From a bacterium (GTDB lineage Bacteria > Electryoneota > Electryoneia > Electryoneales > Electryoneaceae), in contig OY769902.1 of the NCBI GenBank assembly GCA_963669175.1, forward strand, positions 1-64,000: DNA of 64,000 bases. The letters run 5' to 3'. Below are positions 1-14,233 of the stretch, in pieces (position 1 is the first letter of the stretch; each line of letters begins with the position of its first letter). The notes below the pieces were generated by a model, which was not told the DNA's origin, made no database searches, and worked only from the letters and a program-made list of their open reading frames with translations. The position numbers and the translations under genes are program-made.

Positions 1-484
1 GGGCGCCAATCCACCAGAGGAACACACGGAATTCTGCCAGTTTCTGGTTCTTTACCACTCGGTAGGAGAAGTCGAATTGGCGTCCACGGTCAATGATGGC
101 GGCTTCCTTGTCACGGTAGAGCAGCTCCACACGTGGGAATGCAGCGCCGCCGGATGCACGCTTGCCCGCCGTTTTCTTCGCCGGATCGGTATTGATATAA
201 ATGGGACGAACGGTCGGACCTTTTTCCGGCACGCTGACCGCGATCAGGTCCGCCGGGTTCTGCACCATGGTGTAGCCGTGACGGATTTCGCGCAGGATAT
301 ATTCCGGCAGCAGGATCAGCGCGCCACCCACGAAAAACTGTTCGACAGTGATGGTGTTGCGTCCGGCGGTGATCACTTCCTGCACCGCGAGCTGACGTTC
401 AAACGCATCCAGCTCACTGATGACGTTGCCCTGCTTGTCACGTGGGCTCGGATCCATGGTTTCCAGCATTTCACTCAGGGTCAA
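1..484 (-). CDS. Phage major capsid protein, HK97-like (5' part; runs off the left edge; absent from the ORF track)
   Basis: Manual translation of the open minus frame 499->1: AQEQGLTLSEMLETMDPSP...LDAFERQLAVQEV...VEQFFVGGALILLPEYILREIRHGY...AFPRVELLYRDKEAAIIDRGRQFDFSYRVVKNQKLAEFRVFLWWIGA. It resembles a capsid family with LDAF(E/Q)RQL, VEKFF and FPEYI motifs. Start is uncertain: TTG at 484 with AGGAG 6 nt upstream, or ATG at 469. Confidence 0.8.
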   Translation of the reverse strand, partial: MTLSEMLETMDPSPRDKQGNVISELDAFERQLAVQEVITAGRNTITVEQFFVGGALILLPEYILREIRHGYTMVQNPADLIAVSVPEKGPTVRPIYINTDPAKKTAGKRASGGAAFPRVELLYRDKEAAIIDRGRQFDFSYRVVKNQKLAEFRVFLWWIGA

Positions 485-513
485 TCCCTGCTCCTGGGCT
501 TACACCTTATATC

Positions 514-546
514 AATTCCTAATTACTAATTACTAATTTCTAATTA
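514..546. repeat. Heptamer tandem repeat (AATTACT-type)
   Basis: aattcct aattact aattact aatttct aatta; 521-546 is identical to 41787-41812. Confidence 0.85.
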
Positions 547-555
547 AGCGAAGCG

Positions 556-993
556 TCATCCCAGCCACACATCGCAGGTTGTATCCGTAGCATTAACCGC
601 GATGACCTGCCCACGCATCAAGTGGCCGCCTTCCGCGATGTCCGCATCCGCCGAGGCCTTGCGAACCTTGCCCTCGCCTGCGATCTCGACCATCTGGTTG
701 ACTGCCGGGGTGGGCGCTTCATACTTGAACCGCGCCACACCACGCGCCTGCACTGCACAGGTTGCCGGACGAGTGGTGCCGGGAACCATATCCGTACTCA
801 CCCAGACCACTTTTCCGAAGACCTTGTTTCCCGCAGCGCCCTTCCCCGCTTCATTGTTCCCACTTACCACACATGCTGTGGCGTTGTTGTCCACATCATC
901 CTGGTCAAAACCCAGATCCGTGGTCGCATCAATAGACATGGTCAGAAACGGCCCCGACCCGATGCCTTCATTGTCAATCGAATACACACTCAT
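556..993 (-). CDS. Putative phage head decoration/capsid cement protein (DUF2190-like)
   Basis: 145 aa Gly/Ala/Val-rich beta protein (EGIG...FGKVV...AVQARG...TPAVN...VIAVNATDTTCDVWLG) directly upstream of the capsid gene; AGGAG RBS. Confidence 0.65.
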   Translation of the reverse strand: MSVYSIDNEGIGSGPFLTMSIDATTDLGFDQDDVDNNATACVVSGNNEAGKGAAGNKVFGKVVWVSTDMVPGTTRPATCAVQARGVARFKYEAPTPAVNQMVEIAGEGKVRKASADADIAEGGHLMRGQVIAVNATDTTCDVWLG

Positions 994-1054
994 TGAGATA
1001 TCTCCTGTTTTGCACTGAATGTTGTGTTATCACAACATCACATTCAAAAAAATA

Positions 1055-1429
1055 TCAGCGTCCGCTCTTGAACCGTCCGGCTTCGAAACGTGAACCGCGT
1101 CTTCCCTGGATTTCGGGCAGATCGACCTGGTTGGGACGGAAACGGCGTGCGACTTCATGATCCATCTCATCATCGAGACGTTCCAGTTCTTCCAGGGCGC
1201 CATCATTCGCCAGGGCACGGTCCTTTTCGCCACGATCCAGCAGGTCACAACGCGCCAGTACACGTTTGCGCAGACGTTTCAGCATCCGTTCATGCTCTTC
1301 GGAAAGGGTGGGATGATCACGCAACTCATCAGCGGCATAGCGCATCAGGAACGCGAGTTCATCCAGATTGACCTCTTCACCGGCTTCGCACATATCGGCG
1401 GCGGCGACGAGTTTCGGCAGCAATTCCAT
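1055..1429 (-). CDS. Hypothetical helical protein, possible capsid scaffold
   Basis: AAGGAG RBS; charged helical 124 aa; first gene of the head operon, at the usual scaffold position. Confidence 0.5.
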   Translation of the reverse strand: MELLPKLVAAADMCEAGEEVNLDELAFLMRYAADELRDHPTLSEEHERMLKRLRKRVLARCDLLDRGEKDRALANDGALEELERLDDEMDHEVARRFRPNQVDLPEIQGRRGSRFEAGRFKSGR

Positions 1430-1540
1430 GAATTCTCCTTGTGGTTGGCAGGACAGACTCTCTACGGACGCTCACAACAGGGATTGGCCCTGCGACCAAC
1501 CCGCTTCAACTCTGTCCTTGCGATATCATAATATCAACAA

Positions 1541-1556
1541 CTGAACACTTGTTCAG
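1541..1556. promoter_or_regulatory. Palindromic operator CTGAACA-CT-TGTTCAG (contains GAAC-N4-GTTC)
   Basis: Perfect 7-bp inverted repeat just downstream of the predicted transcription start. Confidence 0.6.
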
Positions 1557-1565
1557 CACGACACC

Positions 1566-1594
1566 AAGATAGGCCACGGGAAGCGTGTTGTCAA
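1566..1594 (-). promoter_or_regulatory. Sigma70-type promoter for the head operon
   Basis: Minus strand TTGACA (1594-1589), 17-nt spacer, TATCTT (1571-1566). Confidence 0.7.
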
Positions 1595-1989
1595 TACCCA
1601 ACATTGCAAATTGTGGTAAAAAGGCCTCAGAGGAGGGGAAAACGGGGATTATTTGTTGAGATAAATTGACTCCCCTGTTGTGTTATGCCGGTTCGAGTTG
1701 CGTTGCGTTGTGTCTACACAATGATTATCTTTTGTCTGTTTGGCCCCGCTTGAAGTGTTTTGGCCCCGCTGGCTTGAAACACGCCGTAGCTTGCGAAGGC
1801 GGTTGCCCAGCGGTGGTCTATTCTAAAACAAAATAAGAAGTTAGTCCTTCTGTAGTATGTTGGCTCTGGAACTTTCGTGGACTGTTGTTACCTTACTACA
1901 CTACATGCGGTATAAATCCTTTGTGTTATTTAGAATAAACCCCGCCGGGCAAGCCGTCGGGGCCAAAAGGTCACCAAAGGCAGGAACGA

Positions 1990-2436
1990 GTGAAGGCAGA
2001 GATCGTCGGACAGAGGGTCAGGGAATTGCGTGAGCAAGTCGGCTACACCCAGGGCGGGTTGGCCGAGCGTGCCGGGATTGATCGTGCCAGTCTGAGCCAG
2101 ATTGAGAATGGTCATGCCGCCCCACGTTCGACCACTCTGTTCAAGCTGGCCGAAGCTTTGCACGTGCGTCCTGCCGACCTGCTGGACGGAGAGAGTCCGA
2201 CTGATAGCCGTACACCGGATGAGGATGGCCCCCGATACGCTCCCCTGGAAGACAGCCAGTTATACCCGGGACTTGAACAGCTGTTGAATGATCCACGCGA
2301 CCGTCTTTTACTCCAGATCACCCCGGCCGAGGAGGCGGCATTACGTTCCATTCGTTTACGCAGCGAACGTGTAGCCTCAAAGGATTTCTTCATTGATATG
2401 CTGGCGGTCATTCGTCGCCATCAGCAGGAACTGTAA
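1990..2436 (+). CDS. XRE-family HTH transcriptional regulator
   Basis: VGQRVRELRE..GYTQGGLAERAGIDRASLSQIENG..PRSTTLFKLAEAL is a classic HTH_3; divergent from the head operon. Confidence 0.9.
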   Translation: MKAEIVGQRVRELREQVGYTQGGLAERAGIDRASLSQIENGHAAPRSTTLFKLAEALHVRPADLLDGESPTDSRTPDEDGPRYAPLEDSQLYPGLEQLLNDPRDRLLLQITPAEEAALRSIRLRSERVASKDFFIDMLAVIRRHQQEL

Positions 2437-2533
2437 CCTCCCATCGCTTCTCAAGGTTGATGCATCGGGAAGCATTTTTTCATACATTCCCGCAGGTTTT
2501 CAAGTTACATGTACGACAGTTGACGGAGAGACG

Positions 2534-2878
2534 ATGTTACTTCTGGACTGGGACGAACTGCGTGACGTCATGCTGAAAGCGGCAGGCGAGAAGTTGGAAG
2601 GTTTTGGGTATAGCCAGGACGTGAACCGTGCGGTTCTGGCCAACATGAAATCGATTTACGATGAGATCCGCACGATCCACCGTGAGTATGAAGCCGGCGC
2701 CATGGATGAGGCGAAGGCACGTCAGCAACTCGGGTCACAGAAAAGCCGTGCCATGGACATGATGCTGGTTTCTTCCGAACTCAGCCTTTTCAAGGTGCGT
2801 AAGGTAGTCAACGCGGCACTCGAAGCGATCAACCCGCAGTTCAAAGAATCGACCGGGTTCGATCTGCTCTCAGAATAA
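2534..2878 (+). CDS. Hypothetical helical protein
   Basis: GGAGAG RBS before ATG 2534; 114 aa. Confidence 0.65.
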   Translation: MLLLDWDELRDVMLKAAGEKLEGFGYSQDVNRAVLANMKSIYDEIRTIHREYEAGAMDEAKARQQLGSQKSRAMDMMLVSSELSLFKVRKVVNAALEAINPQFKESTGFDLLSE

Positions 2879-3072
2879 CCTGTTCTGATTCGCTTCGGCG
2901 ATTCAGAACATGGATGCTGTGAAGATGCAGCATCCGTGTTGGTACCCCTCCCCTTTGTACTTCTATTCCTGCCATGCGCATGAGTATAGGGAATGCTCTG
3001 TGCGCTTGAACTGCTCCCTGCTTGCTCCCTATACTGAAGGATGACGCGACCATATCAGGGAGACCATCATCC

Positions 3073-3687
3073 ATGCCAATCCTGTCCGAAACCCCATCCG
3101 AATGGGCGGTGGAATTTGCTGCCCAACACGGTATCCGTCTGAAGTGCGAAACCCCGATCCCGGGAGACTTGCCGGCATTGAAGTACGAGGATGAACATGG
3201 ACCGGTCGTCCTGCTGGAAGCGAAGCTCCCGCACGAACGTCAGAACTTCTCCCTGGCCCACGAAGTCGCCCATGTCCTGCTGGGACACAGCGGCGAACTG
3301 GGCCCATTGGAAGAGAATGAAGCGGACACGTTAGCGTCGGAACTCCTGCTGCCTCGTGAACAGTTCGAACCGGAAGCATGGCGCAACCTGCGTGAACTGA
3401 AGGAGCTATTCCCGCATGCGTCGTTCGAAGCGTTGGCACGTCGCAAGATCACCCTCACCCCCGGCGGCCTGACCATCTGGGACAACATGAAGCTGGTGCG
3501 CCGCCTGTCCGGGCTGGAATTCGCCCTGCCCCCGCATCCGACTCAACCGGAATTCCAACTTGCCAAACAAGCCTATGAACAACGTAGCGATGTGACTGTA
3601 GAAGGTGACGGCTATTCCCTGGAAGCGACGTATGTCGATGAAGGACGTGGGGTCATACGAGTATTGCTGCTGGTGGTTGGGGAGTAG
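3073..3687 (+). CDS. ImmA/IrrE family metallo-endopeptidase
   Basis: ERQNFSLAHEVAHVLLGH (HExxH) followed by EENEADTLASELLLP. Confidence 0.9.
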   Translation: MPILSETPSEWAVEFAAQHGIRLKCETPIPGDLPALKYEDEHGPVVLLEAKLPHERQNFSLAHEVAHVLLGHSGELGPLEENEADTLASELLLPREQFEPEAWRNLRELKELFPHASFEALARRKITLTPGGLTIWDNMKLVRRLSGLEFALPPHPTQPEFQLAKQAYEQRSDVTVEGDGYSLEATYVDEGRGVIRVLLLVVGE

Positions 3688-3822
3688 TCTGCTCCAAATC
3701 AGCGCCTCTCCTGCCTGGCATTTTACAGACAAAGATTGCAATCGGTATAATGATTGCAGATTTCATAATACAGAATGATTAGCCAGAATTTTGTGCATAC
3801 ATTGCTACGAAGGGGGAATAAG

Positions 3823-6021
3823 ATGCACCGAAAACTTCGACTCAGCGTTTTCATCCTGCTGTTGGCTCTACCGCTCCATCTTCACGCCCAGGATAGTGTT
3901 TCCTTCTCGGATCCTGTTGATCTGATAAGCTTCTGGTCTGAAAATGTGAAGGATATAGCATACTGTAATGATCTTGCCTTTGTAGCTTTATCATCAGAAA
4001 TACGTGTGCTTGATCTGTCGGCCCCGGATCATCCGGTAGAAACAGCAATGATGTTTACAGATTCATATCAGGTTAAAAGCTTGGTAACGAATGGTAATTA
4101 TGTTTATGTATTGCATCTTACGGAGCGATATTCAGGGCGGATTTCAGTCGTAGATGTATCCAATCCAAATTCATTGGCTATCGTGGGAGAAATTGAAATA
4201 TCCTACCGTTCGAATACAATGCAGATACATGACAATCTACTCATGATCGGTGGTGGCGAGTTTACAATCATGTCCATTGAAAATCCAAGTTCGCCAGAAT
4301 TTGTGAGCAGTACTGTTGTATCATATGATGTATTTGGCTTCTGTGTACATGACACTCTTGTGTACACGGTCGGCCAGGAAAGAATCAACGTAATCAATAT
4401 CGCCAACCTGGAGGATATACGTTCCCTTTATTTGGGTGATGATGTTACTTCTACGGATTGTGCTGTCTATAATGGTTACCTCTATGCGACATATCGATAT
4501 CCTGTCGATGATCATGTCAGCACTGCCGGCGTTGTATTCTCATTAGAGAATCCTGCTGCACCTGAGCTTTTGGGAACCTTTCGTTTGTACTCACATATTA
4601 CCCAGGCATTTTATAGTGTTGAGAATTACGGGGAATACCTCCTGCTTCATGGTAGAAACCGGGTTGTTTTATGCGAAGTTGGAGAATCGCCGCAACTGCT
4701 TGAGGTTGTTGGAGAGTACTCAAACACAGGCAGAACCTTCATTACAAGCACACTTAACGACAATACCCTGTTCACAATTGTTGATCATTGGGACATAACT
4801 GGACTGCAAAGTTTTTCCATTGAAGAAACCAGCATAACTCCCCAGGGGTTGACCTGTTGGTATGAGGGTACCTACCAGACCCACGAACAGCGTGGTGACT
4901 ATGTCTATGCTTTTGTTTCACCTTTTGATTTGTTCTGTTTTGACATATCCGATCCAGACAACCCGGTTACTGTTTCAGGCAGTTTTCGCGGTGAAGGAAT
5001 GGCACCATATGAATTAACATCGTATCAATGCGATGAATACATATATACAATTACAGGTGATGGCGTACTAAGCGTATACGACACATCCGATCCTGAGAAT
5101 GTCGCTGTAGTCTGGAGTGAATCGATCGGGCCGGACGACATCAACTATCCTGATATACAGGGCTGTGGTGATTTGCTGGTTATAAACCGTGGAAATAGTG
5201 TCCTGGAAGGCTGGTCTGTTGAAAACAGGCGCGAACCTGTACTGGTCTGGTCACACGACACTGCCAGGTGCACGTATATTGTCAACGATGAGTACTTATA
5301 CAAATTCGTGTCAACAACTCTCGTCATTTATAGCCTGGACGGTTTTAATCCACCGGAAGAGGTTTCCCGGTCATTCATATACCTGGGTTGTTCCGCAACA
5401 CCGGCGTCTCATGGCGATTATCTATATATACCATCCTCCTGCGGAGTTGTGAAAACCAATATTAGCGATCCTGTAGCTCCTCGAAGTGAAGCCCTGCTCC
5501 CCAATGGAGCAGGCCGTACAAATGGTGTAGATATTCAGTTCCCTTTTGCTTATGTGTTGGTAGTAAACAGGATCCAGGTGTTTGACATATGGGACCCGGT
5601 CCATCCTCGACTGACAGGCACAGAACTGTATTCTGAACCTCCAGTAAAAATGACTCTGCAAAATGATGTTGTCGTGGTGGGTACAGAAACAACTCTGCAA
5701 TTTCAAACTGTGTGTATCCCTAACACGGCAGATGATGATATCAAGGAATTTGTGCCCACAGAATATTCTCTTCTTACAGCGTATCCCAACCCGTTTAACG
5801 GCGCAATCAACTTGACAGTGATGCTGCAGGAACGAAGTGACGTTCTCATGCAGGTCTATTCTATCGAAGGACGCCTGATAACAACTCTCATGGACCACAC
5901 GATGGAGAAAGGAACTCATCGTGTAACCTGGACACCGGACAACTGTTCCTCCGGAGTGTATTTCGTGTCACTCAAGACAAACGAAACCAGCGCAATTCAG
6001 AAGATTATCTATACCAGGTAG
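3823..6021 (+). CDS. Secreted LVIVD-repeat protein with T9SS-type CTD
   Basis: Signal peptide; repeated V(L/V)D(L/V/I)SxPxxP motifs; C-terminal AYPNPFN...SSGVYFV. Confidence 0.85.
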   Translation: MHRKLRLSVFILLLALPLHLHAQDSVSFSDPVDLISFWSENVKDIAYCNDLAFVALSSEIRVLDLSAPDHPVETAMMFTDSYQVKSLVTNGNYVYVLHLTERYSGRISVVDVSNPNSLAIVGEIEISYRSNTMQIHDNLLMIGGGEFTIMSIENPSSPEFVSSTVVSYDVFGFCVHDTLVYTVGQERINVINIANLEDIRSLYLGDDVTSTDCAVYNGYLYATYRYPVDDHVSTAGVVFSLENPAAPELLGTFRLYSHITQAFYSVENYGEYLLLHGRNRVVLCEVGESPQLLEVVGEYSNTGRTFITSTLNDNTLFTIVDHWDITGLQSFSIEETSITPQGLTCWYEGTYQTHEQRGDYVYAFVSPFDLFCFDISDPDNPVTVSGSFRGEGMAPYELTSYQCDEYIYTITGDGVLSVYDTSDPENVAVVWSESIGPDDINYPDIQGCGDLLVINRGNSVLEGWSVENRREPVLVWSHDTARCTYIVNDEYLYKFVSTTLVIYSLDGFNPPEEVSRSFIYLGCSATPASHGDYLYIPSSCGVVKTNISDPVAPRSEALLPNGAGRTNGVDIQFPFAYVLVVNRIQVFDIWDPVHPRLTGTELYSEPPVKMTLQNDVVVVGTETTLQFQTVCIPNTADDDIKEFVPTEYSLLTAYPNPFNGAINLTVMLQERSDVLMQVYSIEGRLITTLMDHTMEKGTHRVTWTPDNCSSGVYFVSLKTNETSAIQKIIYTR

Positions 6022-6030
6022 GGGGAAAAT

Positions 6031-8370
6031 ATGCCGTCAAACATAGCGAAAACGATCACTATTGCACTGTCGCTGCTTCTCGCCTGTCTGACCGGTTTTG
6101 CACAGGACAGCCTGAATATCAGTCGAGTCGGGCAGATTCCGATCACAGCGGACTGGTGGGGTAAGGCGTTGATGATTGACACCTATGCCTATCTCCCTAC
6201 CGCAGGTTCATGTATAGAGGTTATTGATCTTTCGGATCTGGATGATCCACGGGAAGTCATAACGTTGACGGTCCCGGGATCAGGTTATCCCAAGCTCATG
6301 CTGGATCAACATGATGTACTGTATGTTCAACTCTATCGCAACCGTTTTGAATGGTATGATGTCAGCAATTCGGCAGAACCAGTGTTTCTTGGTTTTATGA
6401 CCACTCCTGAAGGTCTGGAAGGGATGACTTGTGACGAGGATATCCTCGTTGTGACTGGACATGCTCCCGAAAGCCTCTATGACGGCTGGATGCAGGTGTA
6501 TTCGTTGAACGATCCGCATCACCCGGAACAGATTCACGACGGTCAAGTCAGCGAAGCGCTGGGCTGTGCCAATCTCGATGGCGATTACCTGTATATAGCT
6601 GGTCATTATTCTGTTCGAACTTTTGATATGAACAATCCTGAAGAACCGGTGGAATGTTCTAGCCTGTTTATACCATGCTGGTCCATGACAGCTTTGTACA
6701 GATTTGAAGACTATCTTCACATCGCCTTTGTGGATGATGCTCGTCATTCTTATGAATATCGGCGTGTTATTGACCTGTCTGATCCAGCGCTACCAATTGA
6801 TGTGGGAACCATTTTGCTTGATGGAGATCCTCTCCGATTTCACGACCAGGTTGTTCTTGGAGATACATTGCTCATCCTGCCTGGTCTGCGTAAAATAGTC
6901 TTTCACGAACCAAGCCAAGCTTCTATTGTTTGGGAAAATCCAACCCCCAATCCTGGCAGCGCTCTCAAATGGCTTTCATGTTGGCAGGAATCTGAAAGTA
7001 TCATCGTAAACAACAAAATAAATCTTTCACATTTTAACGTCGAGGAGGCCGAATTTTCTTCTCTGATCGACAATACACTCTCTTCACTTCATAAAATGAC
7101 CGTTGAAGATAGTTTGCTGGTAGTAACAAACAATGAGAGCGTAAGAATCTACAATGTGGCTGATCCCGATACACCAGTTGCCAGGGACACATTTACAGTA
7201 ATGAATGATTATTGTCCAAAAGAAATGCAATTGAAGGATGGCGCCCTCTACATGTCCTTGATGCTGTTGGATGCTGACGAGTATGACTGGTGTTTCTACA
7301 GGGCTTTAGGGGCATATGACTTGACAACTATACAAGGTCCATGCCTGTTATATTTCCAGGACCGTGTTCCGGATTATTTCAGCTACGCAACCATCGATAG
7401 TTTCTACCATCTAAAATCCAGCGATACTAGGATGTTTTACCTTGCCCCTTCAGCAATAGTCGCGCTGGATATCACAGATCCGCATTATCCGGCAGATCTG
7501 GCTGTAATACCTGTTGGCGAAGATTGCAAGACTTATTCTGGCTTTGCTGTCAATGATACCATACTCTACCTGACAACCTACGTCTTTGTAAACCAAAGAC
7601 CTCCTGCAGGTTACTTTCAAGGCTATGTTTTCCCGGAATCCGGTGAAGCTGAGCTTCTCTTCGAAACACCTTTCTACCAGGGATATAGTCACCGTTTTTA
7701 TCAACGAAACAATATCCTCTACAGAGAATATATTTCAACTGAAACATATGAAGTAGAAGTCCAGCTATACGACATAACCAATCCCGTATTGCCACGCTAC
7801 CAATCGACCATTACTTCCTGGTTCCCACGAGAAAACCAGGCCAAACTCATCATTGATGGTGACTATGCGTTCGTTGCCGATTCTGTGGAGGGTGTTATAA
7901 TCTACTATTTCGATTCTGACACCAGCTATGTGCAGATTGGACATTCCGATATGTGGGGACCGGCATACCAGATGGAAGTGGATAACGACCTGCTGTATAT
8001 CAAGAACCGTCACCGTGTTGGTATCTATGACATCTCGAATGCGCTGGCCGTATCTGAACCAAAGCACCAGGCTACCAGCGAGTTTCTCCCGATCCGGGTA
8101 GTGCTGGATGCCCCCTGGCCCAACCCGTTTAACTCATCGACTACGGTATCCTGGACGCTTCCGCAGCAGGAACATGTCAGCCTGGTGGTGTATGATATCC
8201 TGGGACGTCGGGTTAGGACACTGTGCAACGAGGTGCGTACGGCAGGCGCACACCGGATTCATTGGGACGGCACAAACGAAGCGAACCGGCTGGTCAGCTC
8301 CGGGACGTATTTCTTGCGCCTGGAAACTGAGTCCGGTACTATGACAAGGTCCATTCATCTTGTGAAATAG
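6031..8370 (+). CDS. Secreted LVIVD-repeat protein with FlgD/T9SS-type CTD
   Basis: Signal peptide (AQDSLNI); DLSDP/DITDP repeats; PWPNPFNS...WDGTNE...SSGTYFL. Confidence 0.85.
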   Translation: MPSNIAKTITIALSLLLACLTGFAQDSLNISRVGQIPITADWWGKALMIDTYAYLPTAGSCIEVIDLSDLDDPREVITLTVPGSGYPKLMLDQHDVLYVQLYRNRFEWYDVSNSAEPVFLGFMTTPEGLEGMTCDEDILVVTGHAPESLYDGWMQVYSLNDPHHPEQIHDGQVSEALGCANLDGDYLYIAGHYSVRTFDMNNPEEPVECSSLFIPCWSMTALYRFEDYLHIAFVDDARHSYEYRRVIDLSDPALPIDVGTILLDGDPLRFHDQVVLGDTLLILPGLRKIVFHEPSQASIVWENPTPNPGSALKWLSCWQESESIIVNNKINLSHFNVEEAEFSSLIDNTLSSLHKMTVEDSLLVVTNNESVRIYNVADPDTPVARDTFTVMNDYCPKEMQLKDGALYMSLMLLDADEYDWCFYRALGAYDLTTIQGPCLLYFQDRVPDYFSYATIDSFYHLKSSDTRMFYLAPSAIVALDITDPHYPADLAVIPVGEDCKTYSGFAVNDTILYLTTYVFVNQRPPAGYFQGYVFPESGEAELLFETPFYQGYSHRFYQRNNILYREYISTETYEVEVQLYDITNPVLPRYQSTITSWFPRENQAKLIIDGDYAFVADSVEGVIIYYFDSDTSYVQIGHSDMWGPAYQMEVDNDLLYIKNRHRVGIYDISNALAVSEPKHQATSEFLPIRVVLDAPWPNPFNSSTTVSWTLPQQEHVSLVVYDILGRRVRTLCNEVRTAGAHRIHWDGTNEANRLVSSGTYFLRLETESGTMTRSIHLVK

Positions 8371-8411
8371 CGTTAAAAAATTAACCCTGTCCGGCTTGAA
8401 GCATGCCAGAC

Positions 8412-8602
8412 GGGTGGCCTGATGCACAAGTGAGAGTGGTGGAATTATTGTTGCGATTAGGATACTGTGATGCTGTTATGATCTGTGACGCAAACAGGAG
8501 TGGATCGGGACGACGACGGGTGGCCCGGGAGTTTACTCCCGGGTTTCAAACAATCGACCAACAAAAAACAGGGACAGACCCCGCTGGGTCAGTCCCTGGT
8601 TT
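8412..8602. repeat. REP-like cluster (92-nt element, short GTGG hairpin, GGGAC hairpin)
   Basis: cctgatgcac...gtggatcggg 8418-8509; gtgg-cccgggag-ttta-ctcccggg ~8520-8543; gggacagacc..ggtcagtccc ~8570-8597, which may also terminate the convergent genes. Confidence 0.7.
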
Positions 8603-8612
8603 GACTAAAAAA

Positions 8613-10283
8613 TCAATGAACATATTCCACTTTCCGGGTCAACTTCTCCTTCGGACCGGCAATAGTAATGAAATAAGTGCCGGAAGCAAGCCCAATTTCT
8701 TCCATGTTCAAAGAAAGACGGTTAAATCCCATCTCAATGCTTGGTTGACGCTGGTATATCGATTCACCCAGCAGGTTGTAGAGGGTGATAGAGATCGCTT
8801 CAGCCTGCTGAATCTCCAGTTCGAGGATGATTTGATGGTTGAAGGGATTGGGATACAGGGCAAGGAGGGAAAATGAGGTGGGTTGTTCAATATCCGATGG
8901 TGATTCGGGAACATCATCTGTCCGCCCGGCAACACTGCCATCTTCATGGACCTTGAAAAGGAAGCAGTTAAAACTGGATTCAATAGCTACAATAACAAGT
9001 TCATTGTTAGTTGTTACTGTTGATAAGCTACCGAGAATGCCGTGATAAGGACTGCAAACAAAAACAGAATCTTGCCAGCATTCGTGTCCGTCATTAGTAT
9101 CTATTTTCTGAGTTCGGTTGCTGGTAATAGCATTGTAGTATTGATGTATAAAAGTACAATAAAGAAATAAATTATCATTAGAAAGATTCAGGCTTTTAAA
9201 ATAGATAAAACCATCGTTGTAGTAATGATGTAGATTGATTCTGTAGCCATCATCATAATATGATGTTCCATCCGGTCTAACACGGATAAAAACAGTATTA
9301 TTACCCGTGCCGACAAGACCAATACTGCCATCCGGAAATACGACTGGACTGCTATTTTGCGTGTTCGCTCCAAAACGAAATGTAAGCCGGTCATCCCATT
9401 GCATATCCGCATCAGAATTGAAGTAGAAGATATTTATTCCAGGAGTAACAAGATAGAAATGATTGTCCAGCGCTTTCATAATATATGTTTTCCTGCTCAA
9501 CGGGCCATCATAAAGCGTAGGGGGATCTTCCCACCGTAAGGATCCATCTGCATTGACATGCTGAATATTAGTGATATCGTCATAGCGCGAGGTGATGAAT
9601 GCGATGTACATGCCCCCTGAATCGCCCTCGGCAATGGTAATGATATCCCCTGACGGCCAAAGGTCTTCGCGTATCAGGATGGGTTCATCCACTTTCATGC
9701 TGCCATCGCTGTTCAAGCCACATACATAAATCGGTGTGTTGGGGGAATCAAAGAAGTAACACCAGAATCCATCGTTCCCATCACTACATATCGTTGGGTA
9801 ATTCGGGTAATTGTCCGCAAGCAGATGTGTCAGGATAGCCGGGGCGCCATCCGGTCCCCACAGCTTTTCCCCATCTGCGCTATAGCGTTGTCCGTAGATG
9901 CTGTTGCCGTATTCCTCATCCATGCTGGCAACAAAGCCAAGGATCACCCCACCATCGGACGTGGGCAATATTCCCATTGGATCCGAAATTACATCCATTT
10001 CCGTCGCACGAATCCCTGGCTGTTCAAACATGGGGTAGCCGTCCTCATCATACCGTTGCAGGTAGGATACAGAGTACTCCGGTCCGGCCAGGAGACCTTG
10101 CAGCACCCAAACAGAGTTGTCCGGGCCTGGGACAATGTCTGTGGCATTGATGAGATAGGGAATCTGGTATCCGTTGTAGCCCCACTGGGCGTGGGAATGC
10201 GGAGGAAGTACAGAAAGAAGAAGTGTAGTCAGAAAAACAATAACGGCGGATAATGTACAATTGCTTTTTATCATGGCAACCAT
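8613..10283 (-). CDS. Secreted beta-propeller-like protein with T9SS-type CTD
   Basis: Signal peptide; DGxGG and QRYxxDG..LWG repeats; YPNPFN...ASGTYFI. Confidence 0.85.
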   Translation of the reverse strand: MVAMIKSNCTLSAVIVFLTTLLLSVLPPHSHAQWGYNGYQIPYLINATDIVPGPDNSVWVLQGLLAGPEYSVSYLQRYDEDGYPMFEQPGIRATEMDVISDPMGILPTSDGGVILGFVASMDEEYGNSIYGQRYSADGEKLWGPDGAPAILTHLLADNYPNYPTICSDGNDGFWCYFFDSPNTPIYVCGLNSDGSMKVDEPILIREDLWPSGDIITIAEGDSGGMYIAFITSRYDDITNIQHVNADGSLRWEDPPTLYDGPLSRKTYIMKALDNHFYLVTPGINIFYFNSDADMQWDDRLTFRFGANTQNSSPVVFPDGSIGLVGTGNNTVFIRVRPDGTSYYDDGYRINLHHYYNDGFIYFKSLNLSNDNLFLYCTFIHQYYNAITSNRTQKIDTNDGHECWQDSVFVCSPYHGILGSLSTVTTNNELVIVAIESSFNCFLFKVHEDGSVAGRTDDVPESPSDIEQPTSFSLLALYPNPFNHQIILELEIQQAEAISITLYNLLGESIYQRQPSIEMGFNRLSLNMEEIGLASGTYFITIAGPKEKLTRKVEYVH

Positions 10284-10967: not shown

Positions 10968-11333
10968 TCAGTGACGTTTTCCCATCACCCAGCCGACCCA
11001 GGGTTTACGGCGCAGTTGGTCATATTTGCGGCGTTGACGTGTAATTGCACGGAGCGTACGGGTGACACTCTGGAAATGCTGACGGATTTCTTTTTCGTCG
11101 AGCGGACTGGGGTGTTCTTCACCTTCGCTGAGACGATAGATCAGCTCCCCGATGTGCATGTAATGAGAATAAAGATCACGACGCAAGGAGATCAGGTTCA
11201 GCTTGATACGGCCCTTCTTCGTCTGGTCGCACAGAACGTGCAGCAAGCCCCTCAGCAGACGATTGGCCCTGCGGAGAATACGTTTCCATACATTCAGAGA
11301 GGTAACGCTGTTAAAGGATTCTTCCTGTTCCAT
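10968..11333 (-). CDS. Hypothetical coiled-coil protein
   Basis: ORF with amphipathic helices (KGRIKLNLISLRRDLY...IGELIY); start uncertain (11333 or 11369). Confidence 0.55.
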   Translation of the reverse strand: MEQEESFNSVTSLNVWKRILRRANRLLRGLLHVLCDQTKKGRIKLNLISLRRDLYSHYMHIGELIYRLSEGEEHPSPLDEKEIRQHFQSVTRTLRAITRQRRKYDQLRRKPWVGWVMGKRH

Positions 11334-11563
11334 CCAACCTGCGTGCGATTCCGCCTGCGTCATGCCCAACTCCTCGTTTGCACCACCCGGAACACTCGAT
11401 CATCACTCTGAGCAAATAATATAAGAAAATCATCACGGGAATGTACGTGATCAGGGACGCATGAAACGCATCTCTCAAGGAAATTTCTTTCCCCCTTTCC
11501 CCTATAATTACGGGTGTGTATCTTCTTTTTTTGGAGCCTAACAACCTGAAGGAGTGGATACCC

Positions 11564-14233
11564 ATGAAATCAATGCGGTTTTTCGCCTGGACTTTACTCA
11601 TTCTGTTCATCATAATCCCGGTCGCTTCAGCCGAAGAAACGGAAAGCGAACCTTTCATTCCCGGCGAGTGGCTGGTCACCAACGCTGTCATGATGCCTTA
11701 TGCCCTGATGGACGCGGACAGTTCGGCCGATCCCGTATCCGCTCTGCTTGGCAGGGATATTGTCGATCCTTACCTGTTCTGGCCCTCAGACAAGACCGTG
11801 GTAAACCCGGCCCCGGGTAAAACCATCACGTTTAACGCGAAAAACAGCACGTCACTTGAGTTCACCCCACTCCCGGAAGCCGGACAGGACTATCCCTTCC
11901 TGGCGATGGCGGCAACATACCTGGATGTGGACACCTGGAATGAGGCTACCATCGAGGTGAAGGGACGCGCACCGTTCAAGCTGTACCTGGAGGCGGAAGA
12001 AGTCCTTTCACGTACCAGCACGGCGGATTCAGATACGGCTGTCGAGTCGGGCGACATTACCCTCGACCAGGGCCGTCGCCGTATCCTGCTGGTCAGCGTG
12101 CTCAGCGGCGCCGATTCATTGGCGAACTGGTTACTGGAGCTGTCCATCACCCCGACCTCTCCTGAAGATGCAGTCATTACCGCAACCACAGACCCGAGAC
12201 ACCGTTTTGACATCACCGACTACTACCTGCAAGAGAGTATTGTCGGGCAAGACCTCTCCAAAGATGGCGCCTGGTATGCGGTCATCCGTGGCATTCGTAA
12301 CGGTCAGACCGACAAAACGGAAAAGTGGCTGGAAGTCTGGAGCCTGAAAGACAAGAAGCGGGTCTGGGAATATCGTAACTCCAAAGGGATCGGCAGCGTT
12401 CAGTGGTCACCGGACAGCAAAACACTGTTGATTACGGTCAGCGGCAAGGACAAAGGCACGGACCTGCTGCGCTTTGATCCGGCCACGTTGACACTCTGCG
12501 AGATGGAAAGCAGCCTGGAAGATGCCATGGGGTTCACCTGGAGCCCGGATGGACAGGGCATATACTACACCCTGTATGAAGCTTTCGAAGAAGACGATAA
12601 ACCCTATAAAGTCATGTGGGATATGCCGGATCGCTGGACGGGGTTCCGTGATCATATGAGCCTGTGCTACATGGGGCTTGATGGCAACACACACCTGAAA
12701 TTCAGCGAAGGCAAATACACTCCTGATCAGTGGGTTGTCAGTCCCGACGGCAGCAAAATCCTGGTGATCAGCGGTGTTTCCAGAGTTGAACGTCCCTTCA
12801 TGGTGAACAATTTCTGGATTATCGACACCCAAACCGGCGAAGCTGAGAAGGTTTTCACCTTCGAACACTCATCCACCGGCCACCCGGTCTGGTCACCGGA
12901 TGGCAAGTATGTCGCGTTTGACGCTCCCATGAATCCGGTGCTGGGCAATGACAGCCCTTACCCGGACAACAACGATAACCAGACTGATTTGTGGATACTG
13001 GACCTCACCACACGCGAGGCCGAGAACAAAACCCGCGACTTTGAACCGGCTGTTGCAATGGGCGCATACGGCGTCGGTTTTGGCGGGACAATCATCTGGC
13101 ACGAGGACGGCACTATCGGGTTTACCGGCCTGTACAACAAGCACATGCGCTGGTACATCTATGACCCGGTCAAGGATGTCATGACCACACATGACCTGCC
13201 CACCCCCGGCGCGACCAGCCTGGTAGCGTCTACGGATAAGAAGTCTACGATTGCCGTATTCCGTGGGCAGCAGGTCGGGCAGTATGGCGACATGTACTGG
13301 TACGACTGGAAGAAGAAAAAGAGCGGCATGCTGTTCCCGTTGGCGGAACACATGAAGCAGCTTATCACCTTCGATAACAAGGTGACCGACTACGATGTGA
13401 CCTACTGGGACGCGGTGGAAAAAGACAGCGTAACCGTACCCGGTTTCCTGTTCTACCCGGCTAATTACGACCCGGCGAAGAAGTACCCGGTAGTGACTGA
13501 TTTTTACGGTGGTGTGTTCGGATATGCCGAGGGCTGGATGTGGATGAGCCAGGTATTCTCGACACGAGATTACTTTGTATACGTTCCCACCCCACGCGGC
13601 GCGGCAGGCTGGGGCCAGAAGTTCGCCGACAGCCATCCCAATGACTGGGGCGTTCGCACAACACGTGACATGAATACCGGCTTGCGTCATATCGTGGACA
13701 ATGTACCGGGCGCCGATGGTGATCGTTGCGCGCCGGTATCCGGTTCTTACGGTGGCTTCATGACCATGTACATGCTGAGCATGGATCATAGCAGCCCGGA
13801 TTATTACCCCTACGCTACCGGGATCAGCGATTACGGCATCTCGAACCTGGCGAGTTACTGGGGTATCGGCTGGTGGGGCTACCTGTACAGCGACATGGCA
13901 ACAGCGCGCACCTATCCCTGGACCGATCCGCAGTATTACATCGATCATTCGCCATTGTTCTTCGCGGATAATGTGACCGCGCCACTGCTTCTGCTTCATG
14001 GTGACGGGGATGTGAATGTGCCGGTCGGCGAATCAGACCAGATGTATACCGCGCTGAAGGTACTGGGCAAGGAAGTTGAATTTATCCGCTTCCCGGGCGA
14101 GGATCATGGCATGGCCTCCACACGCGCCAAGTACCTGACCAGCAAACGTATCCACATCGAGTGGTTCGATCGTTTCCTGAAGGATCGTCCTGAAGCATGG
14201 GATTCACGTATGGAAAACGAATTCCAGCGGTAA
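11564..14233 (+). CDS. S9 family peptidase (prolyl oligopeptidase/acylaminoacyl peptidase type), exported
   Basis: Signal peptide; WSPDG propeller repeats; catalytic GSYGG, HGDGD and EDHG motifs; AAGGAG RBS. Confidence 0.92.
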   Translation: MKSMRFFAWTLLILFIIIPVASAEETESEPFIPGEWLVTNAVMMPYALMDADSSADPVSALLGRDIVDPYLFWPSDKTVVNPAPGKTITFNAKNSTSLEFTPLPEAGQDYPFLAMAATYLDVDTWNEATIEVKGRAPFKLYLEAEEVLSRTSTADSDTAVESGDITLDQGRRRILLVSVLSGADSLANWLLELSITPTSPEDAVITATTDPRHRFDITDYYLQESIVGQDLSKDGAWYAVIRGIRNGQTDKTEKWLEVWSLKDKKRVWEYRNSKGIGSVQWSPDSKTLLITVSGKDKGTDLLRFDPATLTLCEMESSLEDAMGFTWSPDGQGIYYTLYEAFEEDDKPYKVMWDMPDRWTGFRDHMSLCYMGLDGNTHLKFSEGKYTPDQWVVSPDGSKILVISGVSRVERPFMVNNFWIIDTQTGEAEKVFTFEHSSTGHPVWSPDGKYVAFDAPMNPVLGNDSPYPDNNDNQTDLWILDLTTREAENKTRDFEPAVAMGAYGVGFGGTIIWHEDGTIGFTGLYNKHMRWYIYDPVKDVMTTHDLPTPGATSLVASTDKKSTIAVFRGQQVGQYGDMYWYDWKKKKSGMLFPLAEHMKQLITFDNKVTDYDVTYWDAVEKDSVTVPGFLFYPANYDPAKKYPVVTDFYGGVFGYAEGWMWMSQVFSTRDYFVYVPTPRGAAGWGQKFADSHPNDWGVRTTRDMNTGLRHIVDNVPGADGDRCAPVSGSYGGFMTMYMLSMDHSSPDYYPYATGISDYGISNLASYWGIGWWGYLYSDMATARTYPWTDPQYYIDHSPLFFADNVTAPLLLLHGDGDVNVPVGESDQMYTALKVLGKEVEFIRFPGEDHGMASTRAKYLTSKRIHIEWFDRFLKDRPEAWDSRMENEFQR

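Follow-up and report, generated by a model that had tools for sequence, protein, structure and literature searches.

A vertically inherited phage head and DNA-packaging module of putative gene transfer agent type in the uncultured phylum Electryoneota

The first 64,000 bases of contig OY769902.1 (the window; bases 1-64000 of the sole contig, 5,447,365 bp and unclosed, of a genome of the Electryoneota that is 95.9% complete, assembly GCA_963669175.1) open within a cluster of phage-derived genes, which we consider, on balance, to be a domesticated, vertically inherited phage head and DNA-packaging module resembling a gene transfer agent (GTA). The cluster extends over ~10-12 kb and comprises about ten genes, among them those for a major capsid protein, a head-decoration-like protein, a large terminase (TerL), a portal and a prohead protease, and beyond it lie DnaG and further host genes. 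To judge by its distribution, gene trees and substitution patterns, it has been inherited vertically since before the families of the phylum split and has been kept intact by selection; its GTA-like nature is what we infer from these features. Genomes are denoted here by G numbers (the genome of the window being G000 and its contig C1), loci by L numbers and families by f1-f7 etc., within a collection of 79 species genomes of the phylum.

Gene Content of the Cluster

Three structural genes of the cluster lie in the window, all in one operon:

2..499, minus strand (open reading frame (ORF) 2-484, homology to 499): major capsid protein gene, 5' part only (residues ~30-196 of ~360), phrog_3922
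556..993, minus strand: virion structural protein of 145 aa, head-decoration-like, phrog_4588 (E 1.2e-4), always directly upstream of the capsid gene
1055..1429, minus strand: opening gene of the operon, encoding an acidic protein of 124 aa whose C-terminal tail is basic; no family match

The capsid ORF fragment matches the PHROG family phrog_3922, annotated as 'major head protein', over positions 29-190 of its 362-position profile with E 9.2e-17, and is 80% identical to full-length orthologues as far as an invariant FLWWIGA motif; in intact related loci the complete protein matches the same family over its full length, with E values down to 6e-47. Of the 15 aligned capsid members, 13 matched Pfam PF25209 (Phage_capsid_4), with E values reaching 0.01 and scores that lay close to the cut-off. 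Orthologues of the decoration-like protein are 63-79% identical over most families and 51% in one, and homologues stand upstream of the capsid gene in 32 ORFs of viral loci, a gene position from which alone a role in head decoration may be proposed. The 124-aa protein has orthologues only in families f1 and f7.

The initial annotation, made on the window's letters, had described these as the only head genes of a stripped-down operon, without terminase, portal or prohead protease. Its head-decoration-like and major-capsid genes are indeed present, whereas the 124-aa ORF, which it called scaffold-like, matched no family in Pfam, PHROGs or NCBIfam. Two of the three ORFs thus match phage families in PHROGs, and a sequence-profile search of the PDB with the decoration-like alignment gave no useful match. 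In NCBIfam, none of the structural proteins had a named family. The operon runs past window base 1, which is also contig base 1, so that what lies left of the window is the contig's other end, and the stripped-down appearance stems from the window edge and from assembly faults. At the far end of the contig, on the same strand, lie the three genes that had been reported missing, and their claimed absence was thus an edge effect:

G000:C1 5445689-5447122, minus strand (that of the operon): large terminase TerL, phrog_2 (E 1.7e-30), Terminase_6N/6C
G000:C1 5443935-5445224, minus strand: portal, phrog_3753 (E 1e-33)
contig far end, minus strand: prohead protease, 241 aa, phrog_16951, modelled fold as in T4 gp21
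contig far end, after the protease, minus strand for the element genes: by ORF reading, 185-aa ORF, then an FG-GAP gene, then a 90-aa ORF, then DnaG

Reading leftward therefore yielded terminase, portal and protease, but neither a tail nor an evident cargo gene, for which the initial annotation had also suggested looking. The TerL profile matches T4 gp17 in the PDB (E 1.5e-18), and all 16 aligned sequences retain the KS of Walker A, the WDE of Walker B and the D/H residues of the nuclease. The f6 terminases (G025, G034, G043, G046 and G053) match in two pieces, ~residues 39-226 and 216-469, within one frame of 476-561 aa, suggesting that a segment has been inserted between the ATPase domain and the nuclease domain.

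A model of the protease built from 19 orthologues (predicted local distance difference test, pLDDT, 82.6) was compared in an all-against-all structural search, in which T4 gp21 (5jbl_A) was matched with Z 10.7 and a root-mean-square deviation of 4.1 over 149 of 165 residues, followed by a herpesvirus protease of the same fold (Z 4.8); Foldseek likewise returned T4 prohead protease gp21 (probability 1.0, TM 0.57). By this modelled structure, the phrog_16951 protein has the prohead protease fold of T4 gp21, HK97 gp4 and herpesvirus assemblin. H83, H117, S118 and S136 are invariant in the 19 sequences, and the catalytic residues are presumably among them. The alignment profile of the protease gave no useful match to PDB sequences.

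The 283-aa protein, encoded ahead of TerL, is modelled (pLDDT 84) as a helical bundle with an inserted beta-sandwich. Its bundle resembles the neck/adaptor proteins of phiCD508 (Z 8.5), P74-26 (8.4), GP4 (8.1), SU10 (8.0) and Mu (7.9) and HK97 gp6 (7.6); more than 15 phage neck/adaptor chains match at Z 6.4-8.5, tied with prenyltransferase helical bundles, and because of this tie the protein is called adaptor-like only. Foldseek gave only a partial match of the beta-domain, to a phi812 baseplate chain, and the ESM-Atlas leads towards an adaptor scored 0.83-0.88 only, the nearest clusters being mostly from 'Candidatus Zixiibacteriota'. These clusters are a lead towards Zixibacteria as the phylum, although one related MAG carries the label Calditrichaeota.

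In the intact loci L020, L018 and L033 the gene order is XRE regulator (divergent), 124-aa, decoration-like (146 aa), capsid (360 aa), 126-aa, 283-aa, TerL, portal, protease, 185-aa and 90-aa genes, followed by host genes. The minus strand of G000 has the order 124-aa, decoration-like, capsid, TerL, portal, protease, 185-aa and 90-aa, with the 126-aa and 283-aa genes falling into the gap between the contig ends and an FG-GAP gene inserted between the last two.

Assembly Faults at the Contig Ends

Both ends of the contig break inside conserved genes, one in the capsid gene between the invariant FLWWIGA and the Q that follows, the other in the 283-aa gene at ..EDKIAARLREGYT. Judged by public contigs, ~1.8 kb is absent between them, namely capsid residues ~197-360, the 126-aa gene and residues 1-~205 of the 283-aa gene, of which no copy was found anywhere else in G000. 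A public contig of 5459 nt, present in two runs of one sample that is probably the source sample, spans window positions 1-1800 and then continues for 3457 nt leftward. A further fault lies within the capsid gene:

501..502, no strand: assembly omission; 202 extra letters in public contigs of two runs (one sample), which restore the capsid 5' end

In the assembly the capsid ORF is without its first ~28 codons, with a TAA at 502-500; a contig of a third run, with a loose end, extends it upstream of 501, reading ..MYHE and then AQE, and the sister genome has ..LYHEAQE. Since the public contigs carry these letters, the missing capsid codons and the ~1.8-kb gap are assembly omissions and not biology. 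The same 202 letters rule out that the heptamer repeat described below has truly cut the capsid gene short at its 5' end. A 257-aa capsid ORF read over the joined contig ends was likewise rejected, being a chimera whose halves lie 1.8-5 kb apart in nine related loci and whose two parts each stop within a conserved gene. The unclosed contig, the 202-nt loss and a frameshift in the 283-aa gene together mean that frameshifts and short deletions elsewhere in G000 are to be distrusted. The depth of the public contigs at the element equals that at its flanks.

Distribution, Descent and Selection

A full-length match to the capsid profile was found in 70 of the 79 genomes (47 of 51 of high quality), in 9/9 families and in 49 of 55 genera, nearly always as a single copy. 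Within a sample of 61 genomes, the capsid gene was detected in 56, TerL in 53, the portal in 52 and DnaG, as a control, in 59, mostly with one copy each; all three phage genes are absent from G007 (87% complete), G037 (97%), G054 (94%) and G057 (87%). Neither sporadic presence nor, in the loci examined, a prophage with attachment (att) sites continuing leftward was seen, both of which the initial annotation had considered. On a contig of 4.5 kb, the f3 bin G058 has a second, f1-like copy of portal and TerL that shares 64-68% identity with G000 (G058:C242, L013 and L026, versus G058:C20, L083), probably through mis-binning of this contig and not through transfer.

Divergence of the cluster follows that of the host. 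Portal identity to G000 is 82% within the genus, 60-70% within the family and 48-56% in other families, the corresponding values for DnaG being 80%, 49-60% and 37-47%. On a portal tree of 35 genomes, the eight family labels need only 7 changes, the minimum for that number of labels (mean of 18.6 with shuffled labels, 0/200 as low), and each of the five families with at least two rows occupies one side of a branch with Shimodaira-Hasegawa-like approximate likelihood ratio test support of 95-100, as is likewise the case on the DnaG tree. Patristic distances of portal and DnaG are correlated with a Mantel r of 0.91 (0/999 permutations), which rises to 0.95 within the family; the two trees have 22 of 32 splits in common, and the portal evolves at ~0.7x the rate of DnaG. 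With related genomes being non-independent, these tree and Mantel values measure congruence and should not be read as probabilities. The ORFs on either side are kept across five genera of f3, while the flanks differ among the f1 loci examined.

The ratio of nonsynonymous to synonymous substitution rates (dN/dS, Nei-Gojobori) lies between 0.04 and 0.23 for all element genes tested in all pairs, close to that of DnaG, with 0.04-0.15 for the decoration-like gene and 0.20-0.22 for the 124-aa gene. Synonymous sites are saturated in many of the pairs; for G013-G014, the only pair in which saturation is clearly absent, dN/dS is 0.083 for TerL, 0.050 for the portal, 0.121 for the protease, 0.115 for the 185-aa ORF, 0.037 for the 90-aa ORF and 0.039 for DnaG, at a dS of 0.34-0.65 for element genes and 0.455 for DnaG. 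Between G000 and its sister species, the values are 0.071 (capsid fragment), 0.040 (decoration-like), 0.223 (124-aa), 0.054 (TerL) and 0.046 (portal).

Functions expected of an autonomous phage were searched for as well. Pfam and PHROG scans of three intact loci with their flanks revealed no integrase, replication, lysis or tail families, in agreement with the initial annotation as regards integrase and replication genes. PF04984 (sheath), PF10145 (tape-measure) and phrog_5 (Neck1) were not found anywhere in G000, bracketing direct repeats (att) in two loci were not convincing, and a scan of the contig's last 20 kb detected no tRNA. None of the ten structural proteins matched a PADLOC defence model. 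Host domestication, as the initial annotation had proposed, is strongly supported by the near-universal, mostly single-copy, co-divergent distribution, the purifying selection and the lack of recognised integrase, replication, lysis and tail genes; the checks that it had called for in relatives, on tree congruence, dN/dS and (in f3) conserved flanks, bear it out.

Regulation of the Head Operon

Ahead of the operon lie a promoter, two palindromes and a divergent regulator gene, with a metallopeptidase gene further on:

1566..1594 (1594->1566), minus strand: head-operon promoter TTGACA-17-TATCTT, sigma-70-like, 10/12 matches in a consensus scan
1541..1556, no strand: palindrome CTGAACA-N2-TGTTCAG, perfect in G000 and G008 and near-perfect in G009 and G006; a candidate operator, just downstream of the -10 box
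1585..1604, no strand: second palindrome, over the -35 box, consensus GTGTTGTC-TATT-GACAACAC, imperfect in G000
1990..2436, plus strand: XRE-family HTH regulator, divergent from the head operon; HTH_3 E 7.4e-17, PADLOC capH E 2.4e-9
2393..2878, plus strand: 161-aa ORF between XRE and ImmA; no family in Pfam or PHROG, unconserved
3022..3687, plus strand: ImmA/IrrE-type M78 metallopeptidase with HEVAH motif; PF06114 Peptidase_M78 (Peptidase_M78/IrrE) E 2.4e-15, PADLOC capP E 1.1e-10

The promoter, the divergent XRE repressor gene and the ImmA/IrrE peptidase gene had all been named by the initial annotation. When aligned over four genera, the spacer between XRE and the operon contains one conserved block with TATTGACAACA (-35), CTATCTT (-10) and the two palindromes. 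An XRE orthologue (44-53% identical) stands on the capsid's contig, within ~5 kb, in 10 of the 15 other genomes of the family, and XRE is also beside the cluster in the sole f7 locus. Because of this conserved block and the adjacency of XRE, a repressor-controlled promoter is well supported by the sequence comparison. The 161-aa ORF has no orthologue in the related loci examined and may not be a gene.

The ImmA peptidase is present as a single orthologue in 15 of the 16 family genomes (51-78% identical); it was seen beside XRE and the cluster only in G000 and G009 (2/16), and in some of the remaining family genomes it lies on short contigs or in a genome without head genes. No HTH partner was found beside ImmA in the neighbourhoods of G008, G011, G013, G001 and G007. 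An XRE HTH regulator and an M78 HExxH peptidase in one operon, as in G000 and G009, recall the ImmR/ImmA, DdrO/IrrE and CapH/CapP switches, and by this analogy an action of the peptidase on XRE is plausible but unproven; in contrast to those systems, the peptidase gene is far from XRE in most of the family genomes that could be judged. Of the XRE and ImmA switch put forward by the initial annotation, the part concerning XRE and the operator-like palindromes at the promoter thus stands, while the link to ImmA is weaker.

Host Repeats and Insertions

The intergenic regions of the cluster contain repeats of the host, which show that it resides in a host genome, and in G000 also an inserted gene:

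514..546, no strand: heptamer tandem repeat AATTACT x4.7 (Tandem Repeats Finder score 52), between the decoration-like and capsid genes
1736..1859 (to 1861), no strand: one copy of an interspersed repeat of the host, ~100 nt long, in the spacer between XRE and the operon, with a smaller piece at 1913-1970
G000:C1:5439745-5442309 (L009 12380-14944), minus strand: FG-GAP/beta-helix protein of 854 aa that has a signal peptide, placed after the 185-aa and before the 90-aa gene, in G000 only

The initial annotation had recognised the heptamer as a host repeat inside the operon, and up to 5 further matches occur in G000. Window 1-3700 has 57 matching places in that genome, most of which map to the repeat at 1736-1861; its copies are 76-96% identical and often form tandem clusters (e.g. 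G000:C1:1275261-1275420 and 2090464-2091394), and the copy in the window coincides with a depth spike in the public contigs. This repeat has no Rfam match and an unremarkable fold (z -1.1). Further host-repeat copies lie between the terminase and portal genes. In another species, the spacers of the L020 cluster hold short repeated hairpin-like sequences (5150-5267, 8351-8390, 11236-11484 and 13192-13284), hence the invasion of spacers by repeats is not peculiar to G000.

Insertions of whole genes were observed as well. The start of the 854-aa FG-GAP gene overlaps the stop of a 98-aa ORF, and in G025 beta-helix proteins sorted by the type IX secretion system (T9SS) and PPC-domain proteins occupy the gap between terminase and portal; the presence of secreted beta-helix proteins in the cluster of both genomes may be a coincidence or a recurrent association. 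In L016 (3440-6586), a 1048-aa MacB/FtsX-like permease, with 13 long paralogous matches in G000, stands between the capsid and 126-aa genes, and in L018 (2225-3901) a 558-aa beta-propeller protein lies between XRE and the operon. Parts of the cluster are set apart by host genes (T9SS cargo, TPR, pirin, YetF) in families f2, f5 and f6, or lie on separate contigs, and they remain intact despite this splitting; where the cluster is split in two other families, the inserted genes are ordinary host genes.

To the right of ImmA, host-type genes for T9SS-sorted LVIVD and beta-propeller proteins follow from 3775 onward, directly after the locus, as the initial annotation had stated. Paralogous large secreted LVIVD/beta-propeller proteins with T9SS C-terminal sorting domains are found on both flanks of the element (window 3775-10283; L009 7087-9258). 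The G+C content of positions 1-3700 is 0.53-0.60, compared with 0.41-0.47 in these T9SS genes, and as a marker of the leftward boundary it is non-discriminating. An Rfam scan of window 1-4000 gave no match.

Phage Ancestry and Relation to Known Systems

IMG/VR contains one fragment of the element itself (L093, a contig of 8420 nt catalogued as viral, with a capsid 64% identical and the same rearranged order) and many true phages with capsids that are 24-37% identical. In these related phages the order is TerL-portal-protease-(decoration)-capsid; a 55-kb contig behind L095 reads TerS-TerL-portal-phrog_16951-phrog_4588-phrog_3922, after which come Neck1, sheath, tube and tape measure. The element thus has homologues of TerL, portal, protease, decoration-like and capsid proteins in common with tailed phages (the triad phrog_16951/phrog_4588/phrog_3922), and differs from them in that its capsid block stands ahead of the TerL block and no tail is recognised. 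From phage gene order and homology it follows that the element corresponds to the head core of a contractile-tailed phage lineage, with the capsid block moved ahead. For the 126-aa, 283-aa and 185-aa proteins, no homologue was detectable in 79 viral loci.

GTAs, such as those of the RcGTA type of Alphaproteobacteria, BaGTA, VSH-1, Dd1 and VTA, can neither excise or replicate on their own nor be packaged as one unit, are inherited vertically under purifying selection and form tailed particles that bring random host DNA to recipient cells. The element resembles them in being a cluster of structural and packaging genes of phage origin that lacks genes for integration or replication, which appears to be vertically inherited under purifying selection and tied to a host-encoded regulator. 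GTAs are in some lineages scattered over several loci; here, the cluster is split over distant loci in f5 and f6, and its gene content points to no means of self-excision, replication or packaging as a unit. In contrast to known GTAs, it derives from another phage lineage (phrog_3922 capsid, phrog_3753 portal, phrog_16951 protease) in an uncultured phylum, no tail, lysis or small-terminase genes were recognised, and its particles and random packaging of host DNA are putative.

Phage-inducible chromosomal islands of the capsid-forming kind (cf-PICIs) likewise bring genes of their own for capsid, protease, portal, connector and terminase but none for a tail, with a repressor at the edge, and, according to a preprint, release tail-less DNA-filled capsids that join foreign tails (bioRxiv 10.1101/2025.02.11.637232). 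The element, as read from its genes, has such a head and packaging set without a recognised tail; the cf-PICIs, however, are islands that move, equipped with modules for integration (integrase) and replication, and are spread patchily across species, whereas here no integrase, att or replication modules were found in the loci scanned and the cluster co-diverges with the host. An encapsulin, finally, is a shell without portal or terminase that encloses targeted cargo, unlike the present cluster, in which portal and terminase are co-conserved.

Interpretation and Alternative Explanations

If the module functions as its genes suggest, the divergent XRE repressor would bind the palindromes that overlie the -35 box and the start of transcription, keeping the operon off until a signal removes it; the family-wide ImmA/CapP-like peptidase may be what cleaves XRE. 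The portal, protease, capsid and decoration proteins would then build and mature a capsid, which the terminase would fill with DNA, most likely that of the host, because the element has no way to excise or replicate, and the adaptor-like protein would close the portal. Delivery might proceed through tail-less particles, or with tails that are encoded elsewhere or by other phages. The ancestor of the module would have been a tailed phage, whose tail, lysis, integration and replication genes and recognisable small terminase were lost. A more specific proposal, that of a head-only GTA kept phylum-wide since before the families diverged, which is switched by XRE with the possible involvement of an unlinked ImmA and delivers by borrowed tails or otherwise, is put forward tentatively, its odds being well short of even.

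Several observations weigh against a GTA-like module. Capsid assembly, maturation, filling with host DNA upon de-repression and gene exchange are predictions from the gene content. A classical GTA possesses a tail, and the absence of a recognised one is the main gap in this reading; no tail, lysis or small-terminase genes were recognised in the loci scanned, albeit the genome-wide tail search covered three families in one genome. The assignment of the 283-aa protein as an adaptor is weak, the model's Z scores of 7.6-8.5 being tied with those of prenyltransferases, and the 283-aa gene of G000 carries a +1 frameshift in a CCC run, which could be real or a read error and may be of the same kind as the other assembly omissions. 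On the question of an HK97 fold, the capsid alignment profile had no match among PDB sequences. With respect to regulation, XRE was not found beside the cluster in the f3 loci, and ImmA is on another contig or far away in G006, G008, G011, G013, G014, G002 and G012. The capsid gene is absent from 9 of the 79 genomes, and the absence of capsid, TerL and portal from the 97% complete G037 indicates that the module is dispensable.

The same gene set (capsid, protease, portal, adaptor-like protein and TerL, but no tail) is that of the cf-PICI packaging module, which raises the alternative of a tail-borrowing, satellite-like element, either fixed in the chromosome or still mobilised, whose tail-less, DNA-filled capsids would join the tails of other phages in the way described above for the islands. 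The repressor gene at the cluster's edge and the failure to find tail families in G000, where three were searched, agree with this explanation. We nevertheless consider it unlikely, since integrase, att repeats and replication genes were not found in the loci scanned, the distribution is near-universal and host-co-divergent instead of sporadic, and the depth of public contigs is the same as in the flanks; moreover, the cluster lies in distant pieces in f5 and f6 and is yet intact, a splitting that a singly packaged unit would not tolerate. A slightly smaller chance is given to an exaptation for a role other than transfer, for instance anti-phage interference with assembly or packaging, or programmed DNA disposal. 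It would fit the control of defence systems by pairs of XRE and M78 peptidase (as reflected in the capH and capP model matches), the lack of a delivery apparatus in G000 and the dispensability of the module in a few genomes. Yet none of the ten structural proteins matches a PADLOC defence model, and purifying selection acts on everything that a complete, DNA-filled head requires, down to the decoration protein and the nuclease residues of the terminase, where interference alone would need less.

Two further explanations are contradicted by the data. That of an ordinary prophage, complete or decaying, with its remainder left of the window, draws on the leftward continuation of the cluster with terminase and portal, on the higher G+C content of positions 1-3700 relative to the T9SS genes on the right and on the listing of L093 as viral in IMG/VR. 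It is nonetheless highly improbable, given that the whole element ends after ~10-12 kb at DnaG and other host genes, that no integrase, tail, lysis or replication genes were found in the scanned loci, that the ORFs are intact with dN/dS of 0.04-0.23 and a divergence equal to that of DnaG, and that the module is phylum-wide and mostly single-copy. Still less credence is given to a capsid-derived, encapsulin-like nanocompartment enclosing enzymes in place of DNA, an option raised by the initial annotation: the window alone shows only shell-type genes under a host-like regulator, but a portal, a terminase with invariant ATPase and nuclease motifs, a maturation protease and an adaptor-like gene are co-conserved with the capsid, and no cargo gene is evident.

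Implications

Literature searches on Zixibacteria together with gene transfer agent, capsid/terminase or prophage, and on GTAs of Calditrich bacteria, returned no description of the element. To our knowledge, only a handful of independently domesticated phage-particle systems have been described. Each of those known has changed views on gene exchange. If the proposed reading is true, a head-only GTA would be a new class of domesticated element, and the Electryoneota would add a deep, phylum-wide case from an uncultured lineage, derived from another phage group and devoid of a tail, which turns attention to how, or whether, its capsids deliver DNA. Virus-prediction pipelines will score the locus as a prophage, as has already happened with L093 in IMG/VR, thereby inflating estimates of lysogeny. 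The conserved promoter and operator block, together with XRE and ImmA, offers a directly testable switch.

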